This document shows positions 1 to 12,783 of a stretch of 32,000 bases of DNA, one piece after another (within the stretch, counting starts at the first letter, position 1; every line of letters begins with the position of its first letter). The notes beneath the pieces are model-generated. The model saw only the letters and a program-made list of their open reading frames with translations, was not told the origin of the DNA and did not search any database. This DNA is from Vibrio vulnificus CMCP6 (GTDB lineage: Bacteria > Pseudomonadota > Gammaproteobacteria > Enterobacterales > Vibrionaceae). The stretch lies in assembly GCF_000039765.1 (NCBI RefSeq), contig NC_004459.3:2031127-2063126 (forward strand), given 5' to 3'. The position numbers were made by a program, and so were the translations under genes.

Positions 1-473
1 ATTATGAGCAAGAAGAGTACTTCAGCTTGTTTAGTTACCGAAAGCTTTTGAGGCCTTTTCTCGAGACGCATTACTGCATTGATGAACATATTGAGCGTTT
101 TAATAATCAGTCTTATCGAATTTTGAAAATACTAGAACAGGAAGGGAAGGTTGTGCGATTAAGTCCCCCTCGAATAAATAACGCTCAATTTGTTGCAGTC
201 GGAGGCACAAAAGTCACACAAGAAAAGCATAGAGTAGGCCAAGGGTATTTAGAGTCTGAGCTAGTTAGCGAAGAGCGACAATACCAAGATCAGTTGAACA
301 CTAAACTTGTTGAAATTAATGACCAAATAGTTGCGCATAAAGAACTGCTGGATCTATTTCCAGTTCATGGTGAACATTTGAACAACGAAATAGAAAAGCT
401 AGAGCGTGAAGCATTACTTACTGAATATAAGAAAGAAATTATGGGGAAGATTATTAATCAAGAGAAACGCTAA
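1..473 (+). CDS. hypothetical protein, probably 5'-truncated by the window edge
   Basis: Frame 3 is open from nt 3 to the TAA at 471-473. There is no in-frame stop before the ORF tool's TTG at 27, and no ATG or RBS there, so the gene likely starts upstream of the window. The C-terminal part is charged and heptad-like (EIEKLEREALLTEYKKEIMGK). No family recognised. Confidence 0.45.
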   Translation, partial: YEQEEYFSLFSYRKLLRPFLETHYCIDEHIERFNNQSYRILKILEQEGKVVRLSPPRINNAQFVAVGGTKVTQEKHRVGQGYLESELVSEERQYQDQLNTKLVEINDQIVAHKELLDLFPVHGEHLNNEIEKLEREALLTEYKKEIMGKIINQEKR

Positions 474-553
474 TCGTACATAAGGGTGGTTCTCGACCTG
501 CGGTCCGCACTATAGGAACTAGCACCAGGTTCGGAATTGGACTCTCTTTGTAG

Positions 554-575
554 TCATTCCCATGCGTGGGAATGA
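554..575. repeat. hairpin/palindrome tcattccca-tgcg-tgggaatga (copy 1 of a related pair)
   Basis: Perfect 9-bp stem with a 4-nt loop. It shares the core ATTCCCA-NNCG-TGGGAAT with the hairpin at 963-988. Confidence 0.7.
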
Positions 576-962
576 GCCAGCGGTTCGATAGTGATTTGTG
601 AGATGTTATGGGATCTTGCTTTAGTGTGTGGGGTAAATTTCGCAACTTTCAATAAATAAGCTTTGTTCGGCTGCAAACTCTTCGAGAATTGAGTCGACGA
701 TGTTGACGTAGTTGGAATAGCGACTGAAAAAAACGAAACATGAGTCTTCTCACTGTTGAGCATAGCGCGAACCTTGTTCATTCCGTTGTCTACATAAAAT
801 TGACCTTTGCGATCTCACTGGACGACATTTTGTCCATTAAACTTCGTCCTAGATAAAACGTTCAGTATTTCACTTGTGTCCATCTGCGGGGGTGGGGCTA
901 ACTTCTTACGGCATTGAGGCATTGCTAATTTCAGTTATCTCGAATAGATAAGAAGATATCAT

Positions 963-988
963 ACCTATTCCCAATCGTGGGAATAGGT
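963..988. repeat. hairpin/palindrome acctattccca-atcg-tgggaataggt (copy 2); possible terminator of the minus-strand gene ending at 1014
   Basis: Perfect 11-bp stem with a 4-nt loop. It sits 26 nt downstream (minus strand) of the stop of CDS 1014-1805 and has the same core as 554-575. No clean U-run follows it. Confidence 0.6.
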
Positions 989-1013
989 TATCGTGATGCA
1001 AAGTGTATTATTT

Positions 1014-1805
1014 TTAGCTTGGATGCCGTTTGTTGGTAGTTTTAGAAAACTCGCCGCGCTCTTCTAAGCGACCTTCTAAGTTAGCTTTCTTGATAAGCGT
1101 TTCTTGCAAGAGGGCAGCAGTTCGCTCAAGTTCTTTTCTCATATTCTGATTTTCAGATTTAATCTTCGCATTGTTGTCTTCTAAAATCGCGTTTTCACGC
1201 TGTAAGGCAAATGAAGAGTCTGAACTGGCTTGCAAAGTTGAGGCTCTGTTTTCAAGTACGCTCACTTCGGTTTTTAAGCGCTCATTGTCGATCTTTAGTT
1301 CACTAAGTTGCGCAGGTAGTTCTTTCAGCTCATCAAGTTTGTCTTGAAGCTCTTCGACCAGCTCACTGGATTGTAATGCTTGTAGGCGTTTCTGTTCAGA
1401 ACAGTGTTCAGCTATCTTTACTCGACTTTCTACAATACTAGCAATGTCACTCTCTACAGCTTGCCACAAAGCCGCTATGTCGAGTTTTAGTGCAGTTTCT
1501 AGCGGGCTGGAAAACCACTGGGGAACTTCTCGATTATATCGATTCGCATTAGGTTGAGCAGAATCGAGTATTTGAAATGCTATTTGAGCTTTTACATACC
1601 TCCCACCAACCGCGGCTTGTAATTGGGCTGGGTTCTCAAAACATTTTCCTTCCGCTTTTGCAGCTTCGTAAGCGTCAAGCATCACGTCGAAGGTAATGCC
1701 TTTATCGGGATCTTTGTTCGCGTTATGCATCTCTTGAATAAATTGCTGTTTAAGCTTGGTACGTAAGTCTGTAATGTAAGTGCGTTCGTTAGTTTGTATG
1801 TTCAT
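1014..1805 (-). CDS. hypothetical coiled-coil protein (island-encoded, co-transcribed with alpA-like gene)
   Basis: 263-aa ORF that starts 13 nt after the alpA-like stop. The C-terminal half has long heptad-like stretches (ELVEELQDKLDELKELPAQLSELKIDNERLKTEVSVLENR...). No enzymatic motif recognised. Confidence 0.65.
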   Translation of the reverse strand: MNIQTNERTYITDLRTKLKQQFIQEMHNANKDPDKGITFDVMLDAYEAAKAEGKCFENPAQLQAAVGGRYVKAQIAFQILDSAQPNANRYNREVPQWFSSPLETALKLDIAALWQAVESDIASIVESRVKIAEHCSEQKRLQALQSSELVEELQDKLDELKELPAQLSELKIDNERLKTEVSVLENRASTLQASSDSSFALQRENAILEDNNAKIKSENQNMRKELERTAALLQETLIKKANLEGRLEERGEFSKTTNKRHPS

Positions 1806-1818
1806 TCACTTACACCCC

Positions 1819-2025
1819 TTAGTACGGTAGCTCTGTTGTTTGTTCTTCGAGCCATCTTTCAATAGTCTCTCGTTCCCAGCCCACAATTCGCGTGCTGATT
1901 GCACGAGCTGGCGGGAGACGACCTTCTTTGCGCCAGCGCCACACAGTCACTTTACTTATATTTAGGTACGTAGCTAAGTCGCTAACTCTTATAAATTTTC
2001 TATCTATCATTTTTATTATTCTCAT
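1819..2025 (-). CDS. alpA: AlpA/MerR-like excisionase-type transcriptional regulator
   Basis: 68 aa with the typical AlpA helix-turn-helix block: IRVSDLATYLNISKVTVWRWRKEGRLPPARAISTRIVGWERETIERWL. An alternative ATG start lies at 2010. Confidence 0.8.
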   Translation of the reverse strand: MRIIKMIDRKFIRVSDLATYLNISKVTVWRWRKEGRLPPARAISTRIVGWERETIERWLEEQTTELPY

Positions 2026-2115
2026 TTTTGTTTTTATGTTTCTGTCTGATGTAATCGTATGAAAACAAACGCAAGTGTTGTAGATTAAAGAAAAGACACA
2101 ATAGGGTTTACACTG

Positions 2116-3300
2116 ATGGATAAGGTAGCTGCGGTAGTACTTGAAAAGAAACTGGAGGACAACCTTAAGAAACTTGAAGCACGATCTAGAAGTGAAAACA
2201 AAAAGCTAACTCAAAAGAAGAGTCCAAATGGTATATCTGTTATTGAAGCATTTGATGTTGATTTAGAGTTAGAAGTGTCTGAAGTGTTAATGTTAAATCT
2301 TCGTTTTCTTAAGACTTTTGCGGATCGAAAGCCGAATACCATTAAGGAGTTCGTTCGTTTTGCAGGAGGGTTGTCTGCATCAATTGATAAGCTTATTAGC
2401 TTCAGAACCCCAACATCGAATCTCTCACCAAAAGGATTACTTCAAGATCAAAACGATGAAGTTATCGAATACATTGATGTGATTGAGCAAATGCTCGTTA
2501 AAGCGAAGGGATTGACACCTCAAAGGCCATCATCTGACAATACTCAAACAAAACACACTACTTTGGCTTTACCTTTCTGTGCGCTTTGCTACAAACGAGT
2601 GAATCAGTCTCCATACTATTGTCGAGATCATCACTCTTCTAGGAGTGCTTTAGCATATAAGAAAGCCACAAGAAGATTGATTTCTGCCGTCTATCGCCAT
2701 AGTGATGATGAAGATGCGCAAAGTAAGCTAGAAGACTATAAACAAGGTAAAGAACGCTTGGATGCAAGAACTCTTTATTCTTGGCTTAACTTATTCTCAG
2801 TAGAGCCGCGATTGGTGATGTCTGAGCTACTCAAACTGGATCGAGATAATGCAGGCTGGCAAAGCTATGCTGAAGCTGTACTTACATTTACACGGGAGCA
2901 TTACCCCCATGCTTACGAGCAAATTAATGATATCGACAACATTACTTCTTGCTACGACGATTGGATTGTAAACGTTGCAAGGGTGCTAGGAGGGGACGTT
3001 GAGGCAAACTTGTGGAAAATTAAGGATGCTCTGATCTGGTTAAAGAGTGCGAATAACATTCAAAAATCGTTGACACTCCTAAACTGTATACGCAGATATG
3101 AAGCGTTTATGATAGTTAATAATTTCCCCGTTTTAAGCGGAGCGAAACAAGGCACCAATCCTAACATAGCGAAGCGTGAACAGTTGAAACAGCTATTAAA
3201 AGAAAGAGATGATGACCCATCTCTTACGATGAATGAGATTGCGAGAATATTAGGTGTGTCACGAACTGCTGTATACAAATTGAAGAATAAAATTATTTAG
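2116..3300 (+). CDS. hypothetical protein with Cys/His cluster and C-terminal helix-turn-helix (candidate island regulator or replication initiator)
   Basis: 394-aa ORF divergent from alpA. It has a central CALCYKRVNQSPYYCRDHH cluster and a C-terminal HTH-like LTMNEIARILGVSRTAVYKLKNK. Iteron-like repeats lie about 215 nt downstream. No family recognised. Confidence 0.7.
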   Translation: MDKVAAVVLEKKLEDNLKKLEARSRSENKKLTQKKSPNGISVIEAFDVDLELEVSEVLMLNLRFLKTFADRKPNTIKEFVRFAGGLSASIDKLISFRTPTSNLSPKGLLQDQNDEVIEYIDVIEQMLVKAKGLTPQRPSSDNTQTKHTTLALPFCALCYKRVNQSPYYCRDHHSSRSALAYKKATRRLISAVYRHSDDEDAQSKLEDYKQGKERLDARTLYSWLNLFSVEPRLVMSELLKLDRDNAGWQSYAEAVLTFTREHYPHAYEQINDIDNITSCYDDWIVNVARVLGGDVEANLWKIKDALIWLKSANNIQKSLTLLNCIRRYEAFMIVNNFPVLSGAKQGTNPNIAKREQLKQLLKERDDDPSLTMNEIARILGVSRTAVYKLKNKII

Positions 3301-3514
3301 CACTAGAGGGTCAACTATAATAATTTGATTGCCAAATAGGTAAATAACTAAATGTATTCATGCTGGCAAGCAGCATGATTTTTCGTGGAATAGTGTCTCT
3401 ATTAAATGCCTTGAGTTTTCTTGTTTGAATAATAATTGTTTTTATATTGTCGTTTTTATTCAATGGATTATTAATCCTTGGACCTAAATAAGGCTACATT
3501 CCCTCAAAAAAATA

Positions 3515-3577
3515 TGTTATAACCATTATGACTGTTATAACTATTATGACTGTTATAACTATTATAACGGTTATAGC
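3515..3577. repeat. iteron-like tandem repeat, 18-bp unit x3.5 (TGTTATAACYATTATGAC), equivalent to seven TTATRRC heptamers at 9-bp spacing
   Basis: Units at 3515-3532, 3533-3550 and 3551-3568, plus a partial unit at 3569-3577. Heptamers start at 3517, 3526, 3535, 3544, 3553, 3562 and 3571. An AT-rich stretch at 3420-3514 precedes them. Confidence 0.9.
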
Positions 3578-3616
3578 TTTAATATAAGGAGCAAGACTGA
3601 AAAATTAAAAACAAAT

Positions 3617-3646
3617 GAGCAAAGTTTGCTCTTGTTGATTTTTTTT
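3617..3646. terminator. bidirectional rho-independent terminator-like hairpin
   Basis: The gagcaaa-g-tttgctc hairpin (3617-3631) is preceded by aaaaattaaaaacaaa and followed by ttgttgatttttttt, so a U-run is available on both strands. Confidence 0.55.
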
Positions 3647-3921
3647 CGTTGTCGCAGAGAGCAATTGCTGTGTCGCAAAAGACAGTTTTAGTGCTTCGTG
3701 TGACACTTCTTTATTTGTTCGCACGTAGCGAAAGCTTTCGTGCAGAGACGTTTGTCTGCTTCGTCTGCAATGTAATTTTCGTGCATCAAAAAATTTCGCT
3801 TTGTAATTCAATGATTTTTTGGTTCGCTGTGGCTGTTTTCTGCTTCTAGAAAGCATTCATCCTGCCGATCGATTTGTATTGTTGTGGGGGATATAAAGGT
3901 TAAACTCAGGACTAAAATTTT

Positions 3922-3935
3922 CAGAACAGTGTTCA
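3922..3935. repeat. CAGAACAGTGTTCA palindromic motif (GAACA-G-TGTTC), copy flanking the heptamer tract on the left
   Basis: Identical 14-mer also at 1397-1410 (inside CDS 1014-1805). A 12-mer AGAACAGTGTTC copy sits at 4036-4047. Confidence 0.85.
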
Positions 3936-3959
3936 AACATAACTTGTTTTTTCATATTT

Positions 3960-4012
3960 AAAAAACAAAAAACAAAAAACAAAAAACAAAAAACAAAAAA
4001 CAAAAAACAAAA
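3960..4012. repeat. heptanucleotide microsatellite (AAAAAAC)x7 plus AAAA
   Basis: C residues at 3966, 3973, 3980, 3987, 3994, 4001 and 4008. All seven units are perfect. Confidence 0.95.
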
Positions 4013-4035
4013 TTTAATGTAGTTATGAATTTATG

Positions 4036-4047
4036 AGAACAGTGTTC
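4036..4047. repeat. AGAACAGTGTTC palindromic motif, copy flanking the heptamer tract on the right
   Basis: Same GAACA-G-TGTTC inverted repeat as at 3922-3935 and 1397-1410. Confidence 0.85.
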
Positions 4048-4160
4048 TTGATAACCGCGATAATTATTTAATCTGACCTTATCTTCACGGAATTTATTGA
4101 ATGCATATACCCCATCATTTCAAGTGATACCATATCTATTTAAGAGAGCGGTTAGCTAGG

Positions 4161-4187
4161 CTACAGAGCTGTGCTCTGTAGATTTTC
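4161..4187 (+). terminator. terminator-like hairpin ctacagagc-tgt-gctctgtag followed by attttct
   Basis: Perfect 9-bp stem with a 3-nt loop and a short T-rich tail on the plus strand. No annotated plus-strand gene ends here. Confidence 0.35.
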
Positions 4188-4547
4188 TATTAAGAGTGAA
4201 CATTGCTCTACTTCGTTAGTCAGTTAATCCTAGCTTAGATTCAAACTCTTTTTTGGACAAAACCTTGTTAGATCATCTGCCCTAATATCGATAACTCGAA
4301 TAATTTGAGGCATCATGAATGACTTACGATATCCCATCTCTAATGCATCTCTCACGCTTGATTTGGGTAGAAGCATGTATTCAAATAATCAGTTTAGTCA
4401 TCTAAAACATTCATAAATATCGACATTTTATACGCCATCACAATCCGATTTCTTTGCGGACTTATCGCGTTTTTGGAAAAAATGCACTAAAGTACTATCG
4501 TCTAATTGAGTTAGTAAAATAGTTAATACAATTCCATTTTCATATCA

Positions 4548-5855
4548 TCATATAAGATGCATAAGTAGTTCAGTGAGTATATCTTTTTTCAACTTTCCCA
4601 AGGTCTCTTCTTTTGCGTTTTCTGGAATAACCATTTGTAGCAATGAGCGTTTTAAATTTCCAATTGATTGAGGTGTTATAATCTGTTGTTCTCCTTTAAA
4701 CAATTTAACGATAGACTCAATGGCAGTATCAGGGTACTTTCTAACCATATTTAGGCTGGTGATAAGCTCTTTATCATGATGACTATAATAACCTTCAAGC
4801 CCATTTTCAGTTGCCACGGCTAACTTATATATAGACAGGGAGTTAGTAACTTTGAAGGGTAAGTTAGGCTCAAGAGCTATCTGTAATTTTTCTTGAGAAT
4901 TGTAATCAAAAAATATACCAATATCTTGGGCCTTATTTTTTATAGTAAATACTTTCCTTTCGCTAAGGTCATCTTCTACCAAATACGGATGTGATATGTT
5001 ATAAGACAAGTTTCCTCGAGCGTCGATATTGATCACATTGTAGTTACCTTTGGTATGATTACAATTGTGGCAAGCAGGTATCAGGTTATAAAAAGAAACA
5101 GCAAACATCGGAAACAGTGACTTAGGAATAAAATGATCAAGCTCAGGTCTTGCCTCATCATTTTTATCTATGACAACAACTGGAGTAAAATTCCGATTAC
5201 AATAAGGGCAAATCCTAGGCGCTACATACTTGGTCAATGAGTACGCACACCATTCCAAACTTTTTTCTCTAAACAGATCGTAATCAAACACTGCCTTACA
5301 TTCCACATAGCAGGTAATTAGCCTTTCATTAAGGTAAGGATTTAATTTTGACGCAAGAATTGTTACTGTTTTTCCAGATCTAAGATTCTTACTTTTCCTC
5401 TTATATTCACTGAGTTTTTGGCGATTTAAAGTATGTATATCTAAGTGACATTTCAATTGATAATCAATGTTATCTAAAGCTTGAATAGCATAATCTATGT
5501 TGGCATTAGTTCCAAGATGGTTGTCCAGCGCATCCCAAAATGATCTTAGTGATATAGGGCATTCAAAAGTAAGCTCAACATCAATAATTTTTCCGCTTTT
5601 TTTCTTGATACCACTAATATGAACATATTTGTGTTTAAGTTGATCTGAGATAGGTAAACTGACTAAGTCATCTTTAATTTTGTCAAAAAAACCATTAAGA
5701 ATTTTCAATAAAGTTTCAGGCGTGCCAGTTATTATTTCTTCAAAATTTCTAGATAAATAAACCGTATAGATATTTATTTGAGATGGTCGTTGATTAAAAT
5801 GCGCTTTGTGTTTTTTTATTGCATCGATAATGGTTGCATTGTTAATAAGAAACAT
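4548..5855 (-). CDS. zinc-HNH nuclease-domain protein, PtuB-like but much larger (435 aa)
   Basis: Central block at res 216-270 (nt 5046-5210): CPYCNRNF...ELDHFIPKS...NLIPACHNCNHTKGN. This gives CxxC...CxxC plus catalytic His241, Asn257 and Asn266/His267, a beta-beta-alpha-metal fold signature. The gene begins 8 nt after the upstream ATPase gene ends. The flanking ~215 aa (N-terminal) and ~165 aa (C-terminal) are unrecognised. Confidence 0.75.
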   Translation of the reverse strand: MFLINNATIIDAIKKHKAHFNQRPSQINIYTVYLSRNFEEIITGTPETLLKILNGFFDKIKDDLVSLPISDQLKHKYVHISGIKKKSGKIIDVELTFECPISLRSFWDALDNHLGTNANIDYAIQALDNIDYQLKCHLDIHTLNRQKLSEYKRKSKNLRSGKTVTILASKLNPYLNERLITCYVECKAVFDYDLFREKSLEWCAYSLTKYVAPRICPYCNRNFTPVVVIDKNDEARPELDHFIPKSLFPMFAVSFYNLIPACHNCNHTKGNYNVINIDARGNLSYNISHPYLVEDDLSERKVFTIKNKAQDIGIFFDYNSQEKLQIALEPNLPFKVTNSLSIYKLAVATENGLEGYYSHHDKELITSLNMVRKYPDTAIESIVKLFKGEQQIITPQSIGNLKRSLLQMVIPENAKEETLGKLKKDILTELLMHLI

Positions 5856-5863
5856 GATTATAT

Positions 5864-7672
5864 TTATTCATCTATTGATTTGATACGAGCTAAAAGTTGC
5901 CTTTCGTCTAAGCCTTCATCCAGAAGAGATAAAATACGCCCTTTAATAGATCTAGGATGTATTTTAACTCGATCGAGTCGGGATTGTAATTCCCTTTTTA
6001 GCAGTGGGTCTCCGACTTGATCCACTACTAACTCTATCGTTTTAATAGTTTCTAAGTTGTACTCTTCACAACTGTTAGTATCTAAATCTTCTAATTGAAC
6101 GGCTATCTTTTTTATAATATTTGCCGCATGCTCTCCGATTGAACGCTGTAAAATAAATTGAGACTTTAATATGTCATGAATATTTGCTGCAAATGTATTT
6201 ACATTGATATCATTATGATTCCCTAATGAAAGTGTCTTTTTATTTAGGATGTCAGATAAAATAAACGGAGAATGCGTAGCTAACACCACCTGAGGTTGTA
6301 CTCTCTTATTTTCGAACACTTTAATAAGTGTATTTATTAATAAGCGTTGCCACTCTGGGTGAAACGTGTGTTCAACTTCGTCAAAAATCACAATAGGCTG
6401 AATATTAGTAAAATAGTCGAGTTTCTCCTCAAGATTTCCAATGAAGTTGATGATATTCATTTCACCTGAACTCAAACCATCGATACAGACAGAGGAGAAA
6501 ATATTATCACCGCTGATCTCGTAAGTTCCTAACTCTTCTAACTCATTTCCATCAACTAGGTGTTTAAGTAAATCAAGCTTTCCAGGCTGATTGAAGGGGA
6601 TAATGATACAACCACCATAAACTTCGTTTTCTTGAAAACAATCAGAAATGAGATCTAATTTATGTCTAGTTTGGCCTACATACTTATGAAACTCAATATA
6701 ATGGCTTTGAAGGCCGAGATCTTCCAAAAAAGATTGAGCTTTATCTTGGGCATTTTTAATATTATCATTATTAATACCAAATCTAAGTATTGTAAATAAT
6801 AATGAAATGTCATCTTTGTGATATTTTAACTTAGTTCCATTAATTTGTTCTCTTTCAATGAATTTTGTAGCGAAAAGGAAAAAATAACAAATATAAAAGT
6901 AGTTAATGCTAAACTTATCATCATCTAATATTTTTCTCGTCTCCGTTTTGAGTTCTCTAAACCACTTATGTCTTATCGCATTGCCCCCAATCCCCATTGC
7001 AGATAAGTATGAACTAACCTTATTTTTAATTTCCTCATATTGCAGTACATAACTTGCGTGAGAGTTCTTGAAAATCTGTTCAAATATGTCGTAATTACCA
7101 ATACTTTCTTTAAAACTTGCGAATTGCTTTACATTGTTTGTGGTACTAGAATTTTTGAACTTATTATGTACGGGATCACCTCCAATACGATATAGGTTTC
7201 TTCCATCTATCTTTATATTTATTGGCCTGTGATTTTCATCTATTGGATTGTAATAAATGGCTTTTTTTTCTGTAAAATTAATGTTATTTGAAATTTCACC
7301 ATTCTTAAATGTGTAATCATTGTTATTAGTTATCATAACGAGATCCGAGTCACACCCAGAGTTATACCGTTCAATGATCAGAAAACCTGAGGCATTGTTC
7401 CCGTCTGAGGGGAACTCATTTAGACAAACTAAATGCGTAAGTACTTCTAAAACGTTAGATTTTCCTGAGCCGTTAGGCCCAACTATCGCACTAAAACCAT
7501 CCAAACCTGAGAGCGGATTTTTGACAGGATCGCTTGAACCAAAGTCACTGGAGGTTACAGTGACACAGTGTTGGTCAATTTGGATGTTGTAGTCGAGTGT
7601 AAAGCGAATACCTTTGTTTTGAACATTTTTATACTGATCAATCCGAAGATAAATAAGTCGGTAGTCATTCAT
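5864..7672 (-). CDS. ABC/RecF/AAA_15-type ATPase, PtuA-like (602 aa)
   Basis: Walker A GPNGSGKS (res 65-72, nt 7457-7480), signature-like LSSGE (400-404), Walker B IVIFDEVE (427-434) and ATHSP (465-469). About 330 aa are inserted between Walker A and the signature motif. Confidence 0.8.
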   Translation of the reverse strand: MNDYRLIYLRIDQYKNVQNKGIRFTLDYNIQIDQHCVTVTSSDFGSSDPVKNPLSGLDGFSAIVGPNGSGKSNVLEVLTHLVCLNEFPSDGNNASGFLIIERYNSGCDSDLVMITNNNDYTFKNGEISNNINFTEKKAIYYNPIDENHRPINIKIDGRNLYRIGGDPVHNKFKNSSTTNNVKQFASFKESIGNYDIFEQIFKNSHASYVLQYEEIKNKVSSYLSAMGIGGNAIRHKWFRELKTETRKILDDDKFSINYFYICYFFLFATKFIEREQINGTKLKYHKDDISLLFTILRFGINNDNIKNAQDKAQSFLEDLGLQSHYIEFHKYVGQTRHKLDLISDCFQENEVYGGCIIIPFNQPGKLDLLKHLVDGNELEELGTYEISGDNIFSSVCIDGLSSGEMNIINFIGNLEEKLDYFTNIQPIVIFDEVEHTFHPEWQRLLINTLIKVFENKRVQPQVVLATHSPFILSDILNKKTLSLGNHNDINVNTFAANIHDILKSQFILQRSIGEHAANIIKKIAVQLEDLDTNSCEEYNLETIKTIELVVDQVGDPLLKRELQSRLDRVKIHPRSIKGRILSLLDEGLDERQLLARIKSIDE

Positions 7673-8126
7673 GTGAATTTTATTATTTATAGAGGTTAAG
7701 CCAATAAGGTAATATACCCAAATTTTTGTTTGTAGCCCAACAAAACAAATACCGTTGACAGACTATCAGCTCTACTACAGTGGGTAAAGAAGCACAAATA
7801 TAGTTCAAATAGTGACTACTTGTCATTGCGCAATGTTGGCTCTCAAGCCCACCATCACTACATAATTTTAGGCATGACAAATCAACATGAACAGCCTATG
7901 AATGAGTCCCAACTCTAAACGACTTTGGGGCAAAGGTGATTTAGGCAACTAAGAAGGATCTCTTCTGAGTTGCGAACGATAGTGCGCTCTTGAGTTTTAG
8001 CATTACACCAGATATCGCAAACAATGTAGTTGACCTATTTACGACTGATCTATTTCACTAAGTCGTTTTACTTAAAACTCTTGGATGATATGTGCTCTGG
8101 ACAGAGTTCTGACTAACTTCTGCTCA

Positions 8127-8225
8127 TATACTGTTTAGAGTATAAATATTAAATATACTCTGTGAAGTATATTGCTTTAATATACCCCATAGAGTATATT
8201 TTTACTGTATACTCTATAGGGTATA
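8127..8225. promoter_or_regulatory. four phased TATAC-N8-GTATA operators upstream of hipB (predicted HipB/HipBA binding sites overlapping the promoter)
   Basis: Perfect inverted repeats at 8127-8144, 8154-8171, 8181-8198 and 8208-8225, exactly 27 bp apart. This parallels the four TATCC-N8-GGATA operators of E. coli hipBA. Confidence 0.7.
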
Positions 8226-8264
8226 CAATGCACGCTGTCTCCATATCTAACTAAGGGTATCATA

Positions 8265-8504
8265 ATGCTAGTTAACACACCGACAGTCCTCGGCAATGCG
8301 TTACGCGAAGCCCGAAAGGACAATGGCCTAAAGCAAACAGATCTTGGTCTGCGACAAGCAACAGTATCTAATTTTGAAAGCAACCCTGAAAAATCCACGA
8401 TAGAAACATTGTTCAAGCTCCTGTCTATCAATGGACTAGAAATGCATATTGTGCCGAAAGGCAAGCACATTACTGAAACTAAAGGGGCTGTTGACGAATG
8501 GTGA
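8265..8504 (+). CDS. hipB: HipB-like XRE-family HTH antitoxin
   Basis: 79 aa with an XRE HTH (LGNALREARKDNGLKQTDLGLRQATVSNFESNPEKSTIETLFKLL). The stop overlaps the hipA start in ATGGTGA (8498-8504). Confidence 0.8.
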   Translation: MLVNTPTVLGNALREARKDNGLKQTDLGLRQATVSNFESNPEKSTIETLFKLLSINGLEMHIVPKGKHITETKGAVDEW

Positions 8505-9826
8505 ATCGACTTCATGCTTACATGAATGGCGTAAAGGTTGGGGTACTTGAAAAGCGCACAAACGGCGCACATGTTTTCACTTACGATTCGGGTTGGGTTT
8601 TAGCACCAAATGGTCGTCCTATCTCGCTTTCTATGCCTCTCAGGAAGGATGCGTATACTGGCAGTGAGGTTATTAACTTCTTTGATAACTTACTGCCAGA
8701 TAATCAGCAGATACGAGATAGAATAGCTGCTCGCTATAAAGCAGATACTAAACAGCCATTCGACCTATTAGCTAAGGTTGGTCGAGATGCTGTAGGTGCT
8801 ATCACGCTAGTTCCAGAGGGCTTTGATGTAGATGATCATCGAACCATAACCGCAAAGGCGTTATCCGAAAAGGAATTGGTTAGAATCCTAAAGGGATATA
8901 TGGAGGACGCTCCTTTGGGGATGCTGAAAGAGGAAGATGATTTTAGGATCTCGATAGCGGGAGCGCAGGAAAAGACAGCCTTACTGTTTCACGATGGAAG
9001 ATGGATGCTACCACAGGGAATGACTCCAACTACGCATATTATCAAGCTGCCAATAGGTGAAATTGTTTCTCAGAACAATGTTATTGATTTGTCTGCTAGT
9101 GTAGATAATGAGTTGATTTGTATGAGGCTAGCAAAGGCGTTCGGCATTCAAACGGCAAACTGTGACATTATTCGTGCTGGTGATGTTCGTGCCTTGTCTG
9201 TTGAGCGATTTGACCGAAAATTATCTTCTGATAACAGCTATTACTTGCGCTTGCCCCATGAGGATTTTTGCCAGGCAAAAGGGATTCCCTCAGCTAGAAA
9301 ATATGAAATTGACGGTGGTATCGGCATAGAAGAATCTATTGATATTTTGCGATACTCATACGAAATCAACGATACCGTTACTTTTGCACGTTCTCAGATA
9401 TTGTTTTGGCTACTAGCTGCCATTGACGGGCATGGAAAGAATTTCTCTGTAAGTATAGCCGCATCTGGTCGATATCAGCTTGCACTACTGTATGACATTA
9501 TCTCGGCACATCCACTGACAGGTGGGCGTGGTTTGAGTGAGCGTAAGATCAAGATGGCAATGAGCTTACGTGGCACTAGTGGGCGAAAATGGAAGTGGCA
9601 CCAACTTCAACCGCGCCATTTCGAAGATACCTTTCACACTATGAACGTCCCGAACATAAGGCGAGAAAAGGTTCGCTTATTGCTTGATGAGTTTGAATCG
9701 ACGGCAAGGGCGGTGATTGATTCTGTCGGAAACTCGCTACCACCTGATATTAATGAAAGCGTAAGAGATAAGATATTTAACGGTGTCTTAAAGACAGTTA
9801 AGAAGATTCAATTGACAAAAAAATAA
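8498..9826 (+). CDS. hipA: HipA-family serine/threonine kinase toxin
   Basis: 442 aa. Motifs: ISIAGAQEKTALL (P-loop-like), DGHGKNFS (catalytic loop, cf. E. coli DAHAKNFS) and LLYDIIS (Mg-binding Asp region). Length is close to E. coli HipA. Confidence 0.9.
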   Translation: MVNRLHAYMNGVKVGVLEKRTNGAHVFTYDSGWVLAPNGRPISLSMPLRKDAYTGSEVINFFDNLLPDNQQIRDRIAARYKADTKQPFDLLAKVGRDAVGAITLVPEGFDVDDHRTITAKALSEKELVRILKGYMEDAPLGMLKEEDDFRISIAGAQEKTALLFHDGRWMLPQGMTPTTHIIKLPIGEIVSQNNVIDLSASVDNELICMRLAKAFGIQTANCDIIRAGDVRALSVERFDRKLSSDNSYYLRLPHEDFCQAKGIPSARKYEIDGGIGIEESIDILRYSYEINDTVTFARSQILFWLLAAIDGHGKNFSVSIAASGRYQLALLYDIISAHPLTGGRGLSERKIKMAMSLRGTSGRKWKWHQLQPRHFEDTFHTMNVPNIRREKVRLLLDEFESTARAVIDSVGNSLPPDINESVRDKIFNGVLKTVKKIQLTKK

Positions 9827-9849
9827 ATCAGTATTTAAAGAAAAGCCTC

Positions 9850-9881
9850 ACAGTCGTGCAAGTTATTGCACGACTGTTTTG
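9850..9881 (+). terminator. rho-independent terminator after hipA
   Basis: acagtcgtgcaa-gtta-ttgcacgactgt (12-bp perfect stem) followed by tttt. Confidence 0.75.
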
Positions 9882-10017
9882 ATATTTTTGGGGATGGTCA
9901 AGCTACCGCTCGCTTTGTTAGTTGTCAGCCACGCCTGTAACTCGAAAGGGCAATGGCTTGGTTGTGATTGAGCTATCGAGTCTTTCTTGGCAGTTATCGT
10001 AGATAAAATTAGTTGTA

Positions 10018-11349
10018 TTAGGAGGTAAGGCTCTTTTTCTTCCAAGGAAGCTCTCTCTCAAAAAATACTAGCTTATAATCTTCAAGGCGTGAATTGAGCG
10101 CCTTTTCCCATAGTTCAAGTCCCAATCGTTTTTCATCAATGTACTCATACATATCATAGTGCCTACCAGATACATCATTGATAGCATGCCCCTGTATACG
10201 ATCACGGTACTCTTTGGGAATCTTGATTTCCCCTCCCAATGTTTTTACTGTTCTCCGAAAGTCCCTAGCGACAAAAGGCCTAATTTTTGTAACTTTTTTG
10301 TAAGTTAGCAGTGCTTGAGCAATAGTGTTGGTAGGCATATGTTCATTTGAATTTGTTTTCTTAAAGAAAACAAATGGGCTACCAATAGTAGCCGTTTGTT
10401 CTCTGATTTCTTCTAGTATTTGGATTGCAGAGTTAGTCAGAGGAAGCATGTGATTTTTCTTTGTTTTTTGGAAAGCTTCGCTGACAAGAACAGTTTTTTG
10501 ATCAAAATTTATGTGCGACCATTTGATCGTTACCACTTCGTGAGGTCGTTGCCCTCCCAAGTAAAAACAAAGCCTTAGCACTTGTCTGGTTTGGTATGCA
10601 AGGTTTAAATCATCAAATCTATGTTCCATGTCATAAAGTAATTGGGTTACTTCATTCCAAGATAGGAAGTGTGAACCAATTTTTTCAGGTTGTTTTGGTA
10701 TTTTCGATATCGGATTGTGGTCAAGAGCGAATTTGGTTTCTCTTTTTCTGAATTTAGGGTTATTTTCGTACCCTAAAGCGAAGTTGAATGCCGCATGCAG
10801 AATGGAGCGAATTTTATTACTCTTGTCCACAAATCCTTCTTCAATTGGGATTGCTAATATGTCCAAAAAATCTTCAGTTTCAAAATCTTTCGCCTTTCGA
10901 TGTATGTCGAGATGAGGGAACACATTTTTCACTATGAGCTGATATTCGTCTTCGTGACTACGATTTCCATTATCTTGTTTGTTCTGCTTATGGAACTCAA
11001 TAAGTTGCTCAAAGGTGCCTAATTGATCTTTTTCACGTTCTGCTGTTTTCTTCTCTTCAGACTGCCTTTCTAGCTCATTTTTTGGATCTAATCCTTTAGA
11101 GAGCATTTCACTGTACTCGTTAGCTAGATCACGTGCTTTAGATAAAGTTAGAGCAGGGAACTTACCCAAAGCGATGAAAACTTCTTTCTTCTCTTTATGG
11201 TATTTGAACTTGAAGATCTTAGAGCCAGCAGGAGTGACTTGGACAGTTAAGCGGCCTGTGCCTCGCTCACCTGTATTGTCTGGCTTGTAGTAAGCGGTTT
11301 TTTTGGCAGGAAGCGCTTTGATTTGATTTACAGTTAACATATGGATCAC
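10018..11349 (-). CDS. int: P4-type tyrosine recombinase/integrase
   Basis: The N-terminal arm-binding (DUF4102-like) region reads LTVNQIKALPAKKTAYYKPDNTGERGTGRLTVQVTPAGSKIFKFKY. Catalytic motifs are LGGQRPHEV (Arg), ARDFRRTVKT (His/Arg-x-x-Arg) and HAINDVSGRHYDMYEY (His...Tyr). The tool's start is GTG at 11349. The ATG at 11340, preceded by AGGTGA, is the more likely start. Confidence 0.9.
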   Translation of the reverse strand: MIHMLTVNQIKALPAKKTAYYKPDNTGERGTGRLTVQVTPAGSKIFKFKYHKEKKEVFIALGKFPALTLSKARDLANEYSEMLSKGLDPKNELERQSEEKKTAEREKDQLGTFEQLIEFHKQNKQDNGNRSHEDEYQLIVKNVFPHLDIHRKAKDFETEDFLDILAIPIEEGFVDKSNKIRSILHAAFNFALGYENNPKFRKRETKFALDHNPISKIPKQPEKIGSHFLSWNEVTQLLYDMEHRFDDLNLAYQTRQVLRLCFYLGGQRPHEVVTIKWSHINFDQKTVLVSEAFQKTKKNHMLPLTNSAIQILEEIREQTATIGSPFVFFKKTNSNEHMPTNTIAQALLTYKKVTKIRPFVARDFRRTVKTLGGEIKIPKEYRDRIQGHAINDVSGRHYDMYEYIDEKRLGLELWEKALNSRLEDYKLVFFERELPWKKKSLTS

Positions 11350-11424
11350 CTTGGATGAACCGCTACTAGCTATATTTTGTAGTCGGCTACGTAGTCGGGT
11401 TACTGTTTAGTCCAGTGTAGCTAA

Positions 11425-11522
11425 ATGTAACTATAAGTGATACAGTTATTTCATTGCTCATCATCAAGTTGTTGATTTTACATGGTAATGTAACTTTAGG
11501 TAATTGAGTGTAATTATGTAAC
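11425..11522. promoter_or_regulatory. three direct ATGTAAC motifs between int and the att core (candidate integrase arm-type sites)
   Basis: taaATGTAACta at 11425-11431, gtaATGTAACtt at 11488-11494 and ttATGTAACca at 11516-11522. All are in the same orientation in the P-arm next to the tRNA fragment. Confidence 0.4.
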
Positions 11523-11529
11523 CATATCA

Positions 11530-11574
11530 CTTCTAAGGATGTGGTCGTAGGTTCGAATCCTACAGGGCGTGCCA
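11530..11574 (+). tRNA. 3' fragment only (anticodon loop to CCA) of a tRNA-Arg(UCU)-like gene; island attachment-site core
   Basis: Reads CTTCTAA (anticodon TCT at 11532-11534), GGATG, TGGTC, then T-arm GTAGG-TTCGAAT-CCTAC, then AGGGCGT-G-CCA. From memory this closely resembles the 3' half of E. coli argU. No matching 5' acceptor, D-arm or anticodon-stem strand exists upstream (the expected CATCC is absent), so this is not an intact gene. Confidence 0.75.
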
Positions 11575-11585
11575 TTTATTCTAAG

Positions 11586-11622
11586 GCCTCAGCATCTCAT
11601 GGTGCTGGGGCTTTTTCGTTTT
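11586..11622 (+). terminator. rho-independent terminator following the tRNA 3' end
   Basis: gcctcagca-tctcatgg-tgctggggc stem (one G-U pair) followed by tttttcgtttt. Confidence 0.7.
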
Positions 11623-12147
11623 GGTCATTTTTCCTTTCATATGGATTGTCCGGGCTTTGTCAGTAATGTCACGATGGTGTCAAAGCGGCCAGCTCATATT
11701 GACTTTACCGCGTCCAAAAAATAGCATGCCGCTCGTTTTTATAGCGCGATGGGCAGCACTCATCGTTTCCTTTTCATTTATTGAGGTACAACAGAAACCT
11801 ATGGACTCGTCGAGTAGTCGAATATCACAAAATGGTTTTTTCGAGCCTTCGAAAATGCCAACGGTTTTCTGCTAGCCTGCCAATCTACACTGTTAGCTTG
11901 TGCTGGGTAGTCGATACCTATTGGCATAAGCGAATACTACTTTTCCTCGTTAATACCATCTCTTTATTGATATATGCCTTCGGCCGTTTGCCGCAGGAAC
12001 GATACGCTTATTGATTTGCCTTAAGTGCTTTGTCGCATCGAGAGCAATAAGCGACGACATGTCATGCGTACAACTTTGCGTCCAATGAAAGGGCGGAGGT
12101 GGCTGCGTGGGTTTCTTTGTCCTGAGCGACACTCAGGAGAGATAACC

Positions 12148-12783
12148 ATGACTCTATTACAGACACAAAAAATCGATAACGCGAACGCACAAGGCGTTTG
12201 TGGCGGTCACGCTGTTCACATCGATACTCACACTAACTTAAAAGATGCGTCTATTTCGATGATGTATCGCAAGCGTGTTTTCTGGTTGGTGCTGCTGGTT
12301 TTCGGCAACGTTTTTTCAGGCGCTGGGATTGCTTATTTTGAGGAGATCATCCAAAGCCATGTGGCACTTGTGTTTTTCTTACCCTTGCTTATCGACAGTG
12401 GCGGTAATGCGGGTTCGCAATCGGCCACTTTAATGGTACGCGCGCTAGCAACAGGAGAAGTGATGGCGAAGGATTGGGCGAAAATGCTCAGTAAAGAGCT
12501 TTGCATCGCCGCTCTTCTTGGTATCACTATGGCTGGTGCGGTGTCACTGCTGGGCTTTGTGAGAGGGGGGTATCACATCGCGCTTGTGGTGGCGATCACC
12601 ATGCAGATTGTGGTGATTGTTGGATCTGTGGTGGGCATGTTGCTGCCGTTTCTGCTCAGCAAACTTCGATTTGATCCCGCCTCTGCAAGCGCGCCGTTGA
12701 TCACGACCATTGCCGATGCGATTGGGGTGATGATCTATTTCTCTGTGGCAAGCGTGTTATTGGATTTACCTACCGTGGGTTAA
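12148..12783 (+). CDS. MgtE-family divalent cation channel, transmembrane domain only (211 aa)
   Basis: Has the MgtE TM-domain hallmark FLPLLIDSGGNAGSQSATLMVRALATGEV and PLITTIADAIGVMIYF. The ATG at 12148, preceded by CAGGAGAG, is preferred over the ORF tool's start at 12025. No MgtE N-domain or CBS pair is encoded upstream. Confidence 0.8.
   Translation: MTLLQTQKIDNANAQGVCGGHAVHIDTHTNLKDASISMMYRKRVFWLVLLVFGNVFSGAGIAYFEEIIQSHVALVFFLPLLIDSGGNAGSQSATLMVRALATGEVMAKDWAKMLSKELCIAALLGITMAGAVSLLGFVRGGYHIALVVAITMQIVVIVGSVVGMLLPFLLSKLRFDPASASAPLITTIADAIGVMIYFSVASVLLDLPTVG

Follow-up and report, generated by a model that had tools for sequence, protein, structure and literature searches.

A divergent Septu-like ATPase–HNH nuclease gene pair of the PDC-M62 clade, a probable anti-phage module on a low-GC island of Vibrio vulnificus CMCP6

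A stretch of 32,000 nucleotides (nt) from Vibrio vulnificus CMCP6 (contig NC_004459.3, positions 2,031,127 to 2,063,126 of the forward strand; hereafter, the window) contains two adjacent genes, one for an ABC-type ATPase of 602 amino acids (aa), and one for a zinc-HNH protein of 435 aa. An original prediction, made from the sequence alone, placed the pair near the Septu anti-phage system, which consists of an ATPase, PtuA, with a nuclease, PtuB, and suggested that an oversized, partly unrecognizable nuclease might mark an undescribed subtype. The question raised by this locus is whether the pair is a Septu-like defence module at all and, if so, whether it is one of a new kind. Our answer, given with good confidence, is that the two genes form a two-gene anti-phage module of the Septu superfamily, which belongs to the long-form PDC-M62 clade and is the cargo of an integrative island of low guanine-plus-cytosine (GC) content. 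The pair is a divergent marine-gammaproteobacterial member of an already catalogued, widespread Septu branch, and no new kind of system.

The assignment is carried by comparisons of both proteins with PADLOC-DB, which were made as hidden Markov model (HMM) library scores. The best match of the ATPase was PDC-M62A (PDLC04737, E-value 1.1e-34), with residues 6–568 aligned to positions 3–572 of 601 in the HMM, and this family was the first of the 89 that the protein matched. The best match of the nuclease was PDC-M62B (PDLC04743, 1.5e-42; residues 15–432 aligned to HMM positions 32–325 of 328), followed by a second family, PDC-M01B, at 5.7e-14 over residues ~122–390. The PtuA models of the same library (PtuA1) matched parts of the ATPase at ~1e-16, the AriA and AbiLi HMMs scored ~1e-15 to 1e-17 on it, and the PtuB models matched the nuclease at ~1e-8 in the HNH core only. 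Since both proteins are near full-length matches to catalogued families, the suggestion of an undescribed subtype is largely unsupported. Existing tools would probably call the locus.

PDC-M62 is an unpublished PADLOC candidate label, and no experimental work was found under that name. Only one paper mentions it; there, 6354 Bacillus cereus-group genomes were surveyed, and of 244 duplicated PADLOC Septu calls, 203 coincided with PDC-M62 calls at the same loci. In the supplement of that survey, one and the same protein pair appears under both names, “Septu” (DefenseFinder) and “PDC-M62” (PADLOC). The homolog pairs of Bacillus pacificus and Sphingobacterium are core PDC-M62, the Bacillus pair scoring 1e-216 and 1e-138. 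At least in part of the family, PDC-M62 and Septu calls are the same thing, which matters for defence-system counts.

The motifs of both proteins fall on alignment columns that are invariant across large protein families. Walker A of the ATPase has exactly the residue numbers first quoted for it, the LSSGE signature, the IVIFDEVE Walker B motif, and the ATHSP H-loop are present as described, and the 327 aa from Walker A to the signature agree with the insert of about 330 aa that had been noted. The profile searches proposed for this protein gave Pfam matches to AAA_21 (1.3e-17) and AAA_15 (6e-10), and its structural matches were led by PtuA. When an AlphaFold2 (AF2) model of the ATPase (predicted local distance difference test (pLDDT) 83.9) was compared with PDB using Foldseek, the first 30 matches were all PtuA chains (3.8e-9 to 1.5e-6), among them retron type I-A PtuA (9N69, chain 9n69_B, 3.8e-9) and E. 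coli Septu (8EEA, 1.3e-6). Below them stood AriA (1.7e-6), RecF/Rad50 folds (3.7e-6 to 2.7e-5), and OLD (4.6e-5). The RecF/Rad50 matches, together with weak, sub-threshold scores of Pfam SMC_N and NCBIfam RecF, would fit a housekeeping DNA repair or recombination ATPase with its nuclease, similar to RecF, Rad50, or SbcC; the PtuA chains nevertheless outrank these folds, and the genomic context described below bears on the same point. Among the relatives of the ATPase, conservation is highest in the nucleotide-binding head, and variation is greatest in two regions, the helical insert and the C-terminal extension.

The zinc-HNH block of the nuclease is made of CPYC (residues 216–219), ELDHFIPKS (238–246), and NLIPACHNCNHTKGN (257–271). 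C216, D240, H241, N257, C265, and N266 are invariant in the HNH family, while C219 and C262 are near-invariant. The motifs had been correctly recognized in the original prediction, with an extent that was off by one codon (residue 270, nt 5046–5210, instead of residue 271, nt 5043–5210). Pfam gave a marginal HNH match and did not discriminate long from short PtuB forms; single-sequence and profile searches of the nuclease against PDB sequences yielded chance-level scores only. In an hhalign comparison of 87 family members with an alignment of 39 short PtuB sequences, the HNH family matched PtuB with a probability of 94.3 (E 1e-7, 131 columns), residues 199–372 of the window protein being aligned to residues 29–171 of 216 in PtuB. 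The homology thus runs well past the ββα-Me core. The C-terminal ~165 aa had been considered unrecognizable, but this region is conserved family-wide, homologous to the PtuB body up to residue 372, and then continues as a helical C-terminal domain (CTD) like that of PtuB. The PtuB profile match, the PtuA chains at the head of the Foldseek matches, and the partial matches to PADLOC PtuA and PtuB models all bear out the view that the pair is Septu-like.

In the family alignment, residues 181 to the C-terminus of the nuclease form a conserved core, with H289/P290 and Y357 near-invariant in the post-HNH region, and K421 and D425 near-invariant in the C-terminal domain. The AF2 model of the protein is very confident, with a pLDDT of 92.1 and a predicted template modeling score of 0.89. 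A separate observation concerns H360 (nt 4776–4778), which lies ~95 residues past the HNH motif and is invariant in all 87 family members; through it, the post-HNH region could add a further active-site residue or metal ligand. The claim that the nuclease is oversized does not hold up: lengths in the family run from 302 to 457 aa, which makes 435 aa no outlier, and the PtuB size used for comparison, ~215 aa, is true of the retron and E. coli short form.

Nothing had been recognized in the N-terminal ~215 aa. Residues 1–58 and 181–215 proved to be conserved in the family, while residues ~59–180 are indeed without detectable relatives. This insert is the segment of lowest identity in every pairwise comparison. 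It is 77% identical to the insert of the closest relative, in which the HNH core is 96% identical, and 6–25% identical to those of Shewanella, Pseudoalteromonas, and Vibrio proteins of the same length. The N-terminal 190 aa, searched alone, recovered three proteins among 1.84e9 representatives. What is new here, modestly, is a marine-gammaproteobacterial subclade with a ~120-aa orphan nuclease insert. The coordinates of these segments and of other features of the locus are collected in Table 1.

Table 1. Features of the ATPase–HNH locus and its surroundings (positions in the window; aa residues as res).
Feature	Positions	Strand	Details
PtuA-like ABC/SMC-type ATPase gene, PDC-M62A clade	5864..7672	-	602 aa, ATG start; open reading frame (ORF), profile, and structure evidence
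Walker A GPNGSGKS	7457..7480	-	res 65–72; K71 invariant in ATPase family
ABC signature LSSGE	6461..6475	-	res 400–404; S401 invariant
Walker B IVIFDEVE	6371..6394	-	res 427–434; D431 near-invariant, E432 invariant
H-loop ATHSP	6266..6280	-	res 465–469; H467 invariant
ATPase helical C-terminal extension	5867..6172	-	res 501–602; AF2 helices 514–601; candidate nuclease docking site
Zn-HNH nuclease gene, PDC-M62B clade (long-form PtuB-like)	4548..5855	-	435 aa, ATG start
Family-conserved N-terminal segment	5682..5855	-	res 1–58; occupancy 0.8–0.98; H16 near-invariant
Hypervariable, lineage-restricted insert	5316..5681	-	res ~59–180; column occupancy 0.2–0.7
CxxC...DH...N...CxxCN zinc-HNH (ββα-Me) core	5043..5210	-	res 216–271; Pfam HNH 2.9e-5
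Post-HNH beta-rich region	4776..5042	-	res 272–360; homologous to PtuB body
C-terminal four-helix domain	4551..4775	-	res 361–435; AF2 helices 361–434; candidate ATPase-binding CTD
Divergent intergenic region, ATPase gene/hipB	7673..8264	.	candidate promoters; palindromic boxes near hipB
hipB	8265–8504	+	Pfam HTH_3; toxin-antitoxin pair with hipA
hipA	8498–9826	+	HipA_C 1.2e-43, Couple_hipA 5e-28; overlaps hipB
P4-type tyrosine integrase gene	10018..11349	-	Pfam Arm-DNA-bind_3 and Phage_integrase; phrog_1

Several results weigh against the Septu assignment. The nuclease model gave nothing at E < 0.1 in Foldseek searches of PDB and BFVD, PtuB included, and the phmmer score of the nuclease to solved PtuB was E 0.83. 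The sequence likeness of the ATPase to solved PtuA is restricted to the region from the signature to the H-loop, and the TM-scores of its Foldseek matches were low (0.2–0.33), as can be expected when a multi-domain protein has larger inserts. The TIGR02646 profile, a match to which had been thought worth seeking, was missed (19.2 against a cutoff of 52.15 bits), as were the NCBIfam retron-type equivalogs NF041760 and NF041761 (46.6 against 500 bits for PtuA, and 14.4 against 150 for PtuB). No Shine-Dalgarno sequence was recognizable before the start codon of either gene. If the originally validated Bacillus Septu (2018; HD12, KBAB4) belongs to PDC-M62, the pair is simply a distant Septu homolog, and if it lies outside, the whole clade is still without experimental validation. 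Finally, the assembly, trigger, and substrate of the pair are all inferred by analogy.

All catalytic residues of the ATPase and the HNH protein are intact, and helical C-termini are predicted in both. In short-form Septu and retron I-A PtuAB, ATP regulates the nuclease, nicking of DNA and cleavage of tRNA-Tyr are reported, and Walker and HNH mutants lose defence (PMC12819146, PMC13096335, PMC12065111). PtuA dimers hold the PtuB CTD between their C-terminal extensions (PMC12819146). In a scheme modeled on these systems, and not on the PDC-M62 clade, the ABC ATPase would oligomerize via its nucleotide-binding heads and inserted domains, and its C-terminal extensions, in pairs, would grip the HNH protein by the helical C-terminal domain, so that the nuclease stays latent. 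With an altered nucleotide state or a cue from the phage, the conformation of the ATPase might then shift and license the nuclease, whose Zn-stabilized HNH site (D240/H241 as general base, N257, and N266) would cut nucleic acid, whether DNA (by nicking), host tRNA, or both. The infection would be aborted and phage replication would halt, possibly at a cost to host growth. The nuclease C-terminal domain is a candidate for binding the ATPase, as the PtuB CTD does, and the ATPase C-terminal extension is a candidate docking site for the nuclease, in analogy to the contacts of the PtuA extension with the PtuB CTD in known complexes (PMC12819146).

The best candidates for specificity or sensing surfaces are, speculatively, the hypervariable nuclease insert (residues ~59–180) and, in the ATPase, the variable helical insert. 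It is possible, if rather doubtful, that PDC-M62 is mechanistically distinct from short-form Septu, with a swappable ~120-aa nuclease module (and maybe the ATPase helical insert too) that senses phage or selects the substrate. If this were true, the nuclease, and not the ATPase alone, would set which phages or nucleic acids are recognized, and the marine-gammaproteobacterial insert, which has no sequence or Foldseek relatives, would be a new fold for a sensing or selecting role.

At least 554 genomes were found to encode a relative in a scan that used one genome per species; the spread is patchy, over phyla including Bacteroidota, Bacillota, Campylobacterota, Pseudomonadota, Spirochaetota, and Fibrobacterota. 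Gene linkage was counted in 80 species-representative loci, with no V. parahaemolyticus locus among them. The ATPase gene lay directly upstream of the HNH gene, on the same strand, in 77 of the 80; one of the three exceptions had a 640-nt gap, and in the other two the contig ended just upstream of the HNH gene. The neighborhoods inspected were defence islands or mobile elements, with type I restriction-modification (R-M) genes in one locus (L001), Shedu-like SduA_C, QatB/KAP, and RES in a second (L002), and a prophage edge in a third (L004).

In the first of these loci, from Aliamphritea hakodatensis (L001, 229–9320), the pair directly follows hsdM-hsdS-hsdR in one orientation and at a distance of 17 nt, as though the genes formed a single operon, and there could be functional coupling in that lineage. 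This arrangement can be read as a sign that type I R-M has in the pair an accessory or guard module, resembling PrrC/RloC, which is held latent by the R-M complex and fires when a phage inhibits restriction. Other findings in the same direction are the type I hsdR that V. parahaemolyticus island copies carry ~5 kb away from the pair, the best NCBIfam match of the ATPase, TIGR04435 (“restriction system-associated AAA family ATPase”, 1.4e-19), and the cleavage of tRNA-Tyr by short-form Septu, as by anticodon nucleases (PMC13096335). However, the TIGR04435 alignment is partial and misses its cutoff (70.3 against 300 bits), the window pair is adjoined by hipBA and an integrase and not by R-M genes, and HsdM, HsdS, or HsdR homologs occur within 6 kb in only 5 of the 80 loci. 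The last count implies that the Aliamphritea arrangement is a co-location and not an obligate partnership; an obligate type I R-M link was rejected on this ground, and a guard function appears highly improbable.

The context of the pair in the window is that of a mobile island. GC content is 0.32–0.33 across positions 3000–7500, which is the window minimum, as the original prediction had judged by eye, and rises to 0.45–0.53 from ~12000 on. hipBA sits between the integrase gene and the pair, is transcribed divergently from the ATPase gene, and may be carried by the island as further cargo for defence or persistence. The right end of the island is at ~11588, where blastn homology to V. parahaemolyticus islands stops, and from 12025 on there are core genes (MgtE, a GGDEF protein, and a chemoreceptor). 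The island spanning window positions 1–11588 is present in V. parahaemolyticus genomes (L005–L010) at 93–99.9% DNA identity; the window nuclease has 100% identity with a V. parahaemolyticus “HNH endonuclease” at NCBI, and the ATPase is likewise 100% identical to a V. parahaemolyticus protein. The gene order is integrase, hipAB, ATPase, HNH, a 394-aa protein, an AlpA-like protein, further genes, and type I HsdR. The V. parahaemolyticus copies extend to the left past the window span, where the AlpA-like gene, type I HsdR, and a Polbeta nucleotidyltransferase are found.

The neighbors of the island vary between an ApeP/ketoacyl-synthase cluster, a BrxR/WYL regulator, and, in the window, MgtE/GGDEF. 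The pair is thus strain-variable mobile cargo and not a housekeeping locus, and the island resembles a defence island of a satellite-like or integrative type with several sites of insertion. Conservation in housekeeping, non-island contexts had been named as evidence that would speak against a defence role; what we found was a low-GC island at different insertion sites. Because of this context (0.33 GC, and insertion sites that differ among V. parahaemolyticus strains), a housekeeping repair function of the kind suggested by the RecF/Rad50 folds is very unlikely indeed, and the patchy distribution across phyla also argues against it.

Mobility agrees as well with an addiction, stabilization, or inter-element competition module of the island, in which an HNH toxin would be restrained by the ATPase and would have no anti-phage role. 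The pair travels with hipBA beside an integrase, and over-expressed Bacillus Septu is costly (bioRxiv 10.1101/2023.11.30.569366). Yet family members lie in many chromosomal defence-island settings without an integrase (for example, L001 and L002), and homologous short-form systems protect against phage and need their catalytic residues to do so (PMC13096335). We consider such a module very unlikely as the main explanation of the pair, although addiction and the anti-phage role that we favor are not mutually exclusive.

The ATPase and HNH ORFs are co-directional on the minus strand, have exactly the coordinates first assigned to them, and are separated by an 8-nt spacer, ATATAATC. A promoter scan of the region between the ATPase gene and hipB revealed consensus promoter-like sites on the minus strand at 7826–7797 and 7704–7677. 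Such sites were not enriched (16, against 23.5 in shuffled sequence), and being fewer than in the shuffles, they allow no promoter claim for the pair. At 8140–8235, directly upstream of hipB, are repeated palindromic boxes, TATACTCTATGGGGTATA and TATACCCTATAGAGTATAC, which are likely HipB operator sites; since the boxes lie in the region common to hipB and the ATPase gene, the expression of the defence operon might be influenced by HipB as well. The absence of a reverse transcriptase (RT), noted in the original prediction, was confirmed, as the ORFs neighboring the pair contain no RT domain, and an Rfam scan by E-value of window positions 1–12500 found no retron or other RNA gene. ARAGORN called no tRNA gene in the window. 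By megablast, the ATPase–HNH locus had no match in E. coli genomes or plasmids, and the core-genome part of the window had only trivial matches to plasmids.

Several other elements of the island were observed. At 11499–11563, just inside the island end next to the integrase gene, a tRNA-like sequence was matched weakly and in part by Rfam (23.5 bits, E 0.38, model positions 10–63); it may be an att-site remnant of a tRNA 3′ end. Downstream of the HNH gene, a gene-free gap of 1.2 kb contains a perfect heptamer tandem repeat, (AAAAAAC) x7.6, at 3960–4012. Its copy number is polymorphic among V. parahaemolyticus strains (breakpoints 3977–3995), so that a slipped-strand or phase-variable tract is possible. 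An 18-bp unit, TGTTATAACTATTATGAC, built of 9-bp TGTTATAAC half-units, is present in 3.4 copies at 3515–3575, just downstream of the gene for the 394-aa helix-turn-helix (HTH) protein, and differs in copy number among strains (blastn breakpoints 3515/3581). These repeats resemble iterons and may be an island replication origin or a regulator-binding array. The 394-aa protein gene (2116–3300, plus strand) has only a weak C-terminal HTH_11 match; neither it nor the gene for a 263-aa protein (1014–1805, minus strand) has a Pfam match above the curated cutoff or a PHROG match, and both proteins are conserved in all island copies compared.

With this pair, a divergent marine member joins a Septu branch that is very widespread and mechanistically unstudied, structural and biochemical work to date having covered short E. 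coli and retron forms only. With a fixed catalytic core, a hypervariable insert, and an obligate ABC ATPase partner, the family offers a tractable model for the diversification of specificity in ATPase–nuclease defence. In V. parahaemolyticus, an integrase-borne island moves hipBA, the ATPase–HNH system, and type I R-M between chromosomal sites, and this mobility is relevant to vibriophage therapy and biocontrol.

Compared with known systems, the pair shares with PARIS (AriA/AriB), Gabija (GajA), OLD, and AbiL an ABC-fold ATPase with insertions, and in these systems, too, the ATPase regulates a bound nuclease (PMC12065111). It differs from them in having an HNH effector instead of TOPRIM or DUF4435, and their scores lie under those of PtuA and PDC-M62A; identity with PARIS, Gabija, or OLD was rejected, the partner being an HNH protein with no TOPRIM match in PADLOC-DB or Pfam. 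PDC-M01, an ATPase with an HNH protein of ~280 aa, provides the second family for the nuclease, and the B. cereus survey found its loci, too, to be duplicated with Septu calls, but the match covers a part of the nuclease at a far lower score, and PDC-M01B proteins are shorter. The PtuAB of type I-A retrons (Ec78/Eco7, Ec83) supplies the best PDB matches for the ATPase and the PtuB segment alignable with the nuclease. A retron-type identity was ruled out by the equivalog cutoffs, far above the scores of both proteins, and by the absence of an adjoining RT or msr/msd non-coding RNA.

Stand-alone Septu (E. coli ATCC 25922, PDB 8EE4/8EE7/8EEA; EcB88) has the same two-gene operon of ATPase, then HNH, an ABC fold with a helical C-terminal extension (1.3e-6), the HNH catalytic residues, and a defence-island lifestyle. 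In contrast to the window proteins, its PtuA is ~450–465 aa (602 aa here) and its PtuB ~215–250 aa (435 aa here), and K43 and D316 of EcB88 are 273 residues apart, against 360 between K71 and D431. The sequence likeness goes no further than the ABC C-terminal motifs and the HNH core, and the 6:2 complex, ATP-regulated nicking, and tRNA-Tyr cleavage are known only for short-form Septu. The closest system is PDC-M62. The Vibrio pair is divergent within it, at 1e-34/1e-42 compared to 1e-216/1e-138 for the Bacillus pair, and carries the ~120-aa nuclease insert, the length of which is found only in marine gammaproteobacterial members (Vibrio, Aliamphritea, Shewanella, and Pseudoalteromonas), and the sequence of which is recognizable only in a few Vibrio-type relatives. 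With PDC-M62 it has in common near full-length best HMM matches of both proteins, the same gene order and tight spacing, and a nuclease built of the common N-terminal segment, HNH core, post-HNH region, and helical C-terminus.

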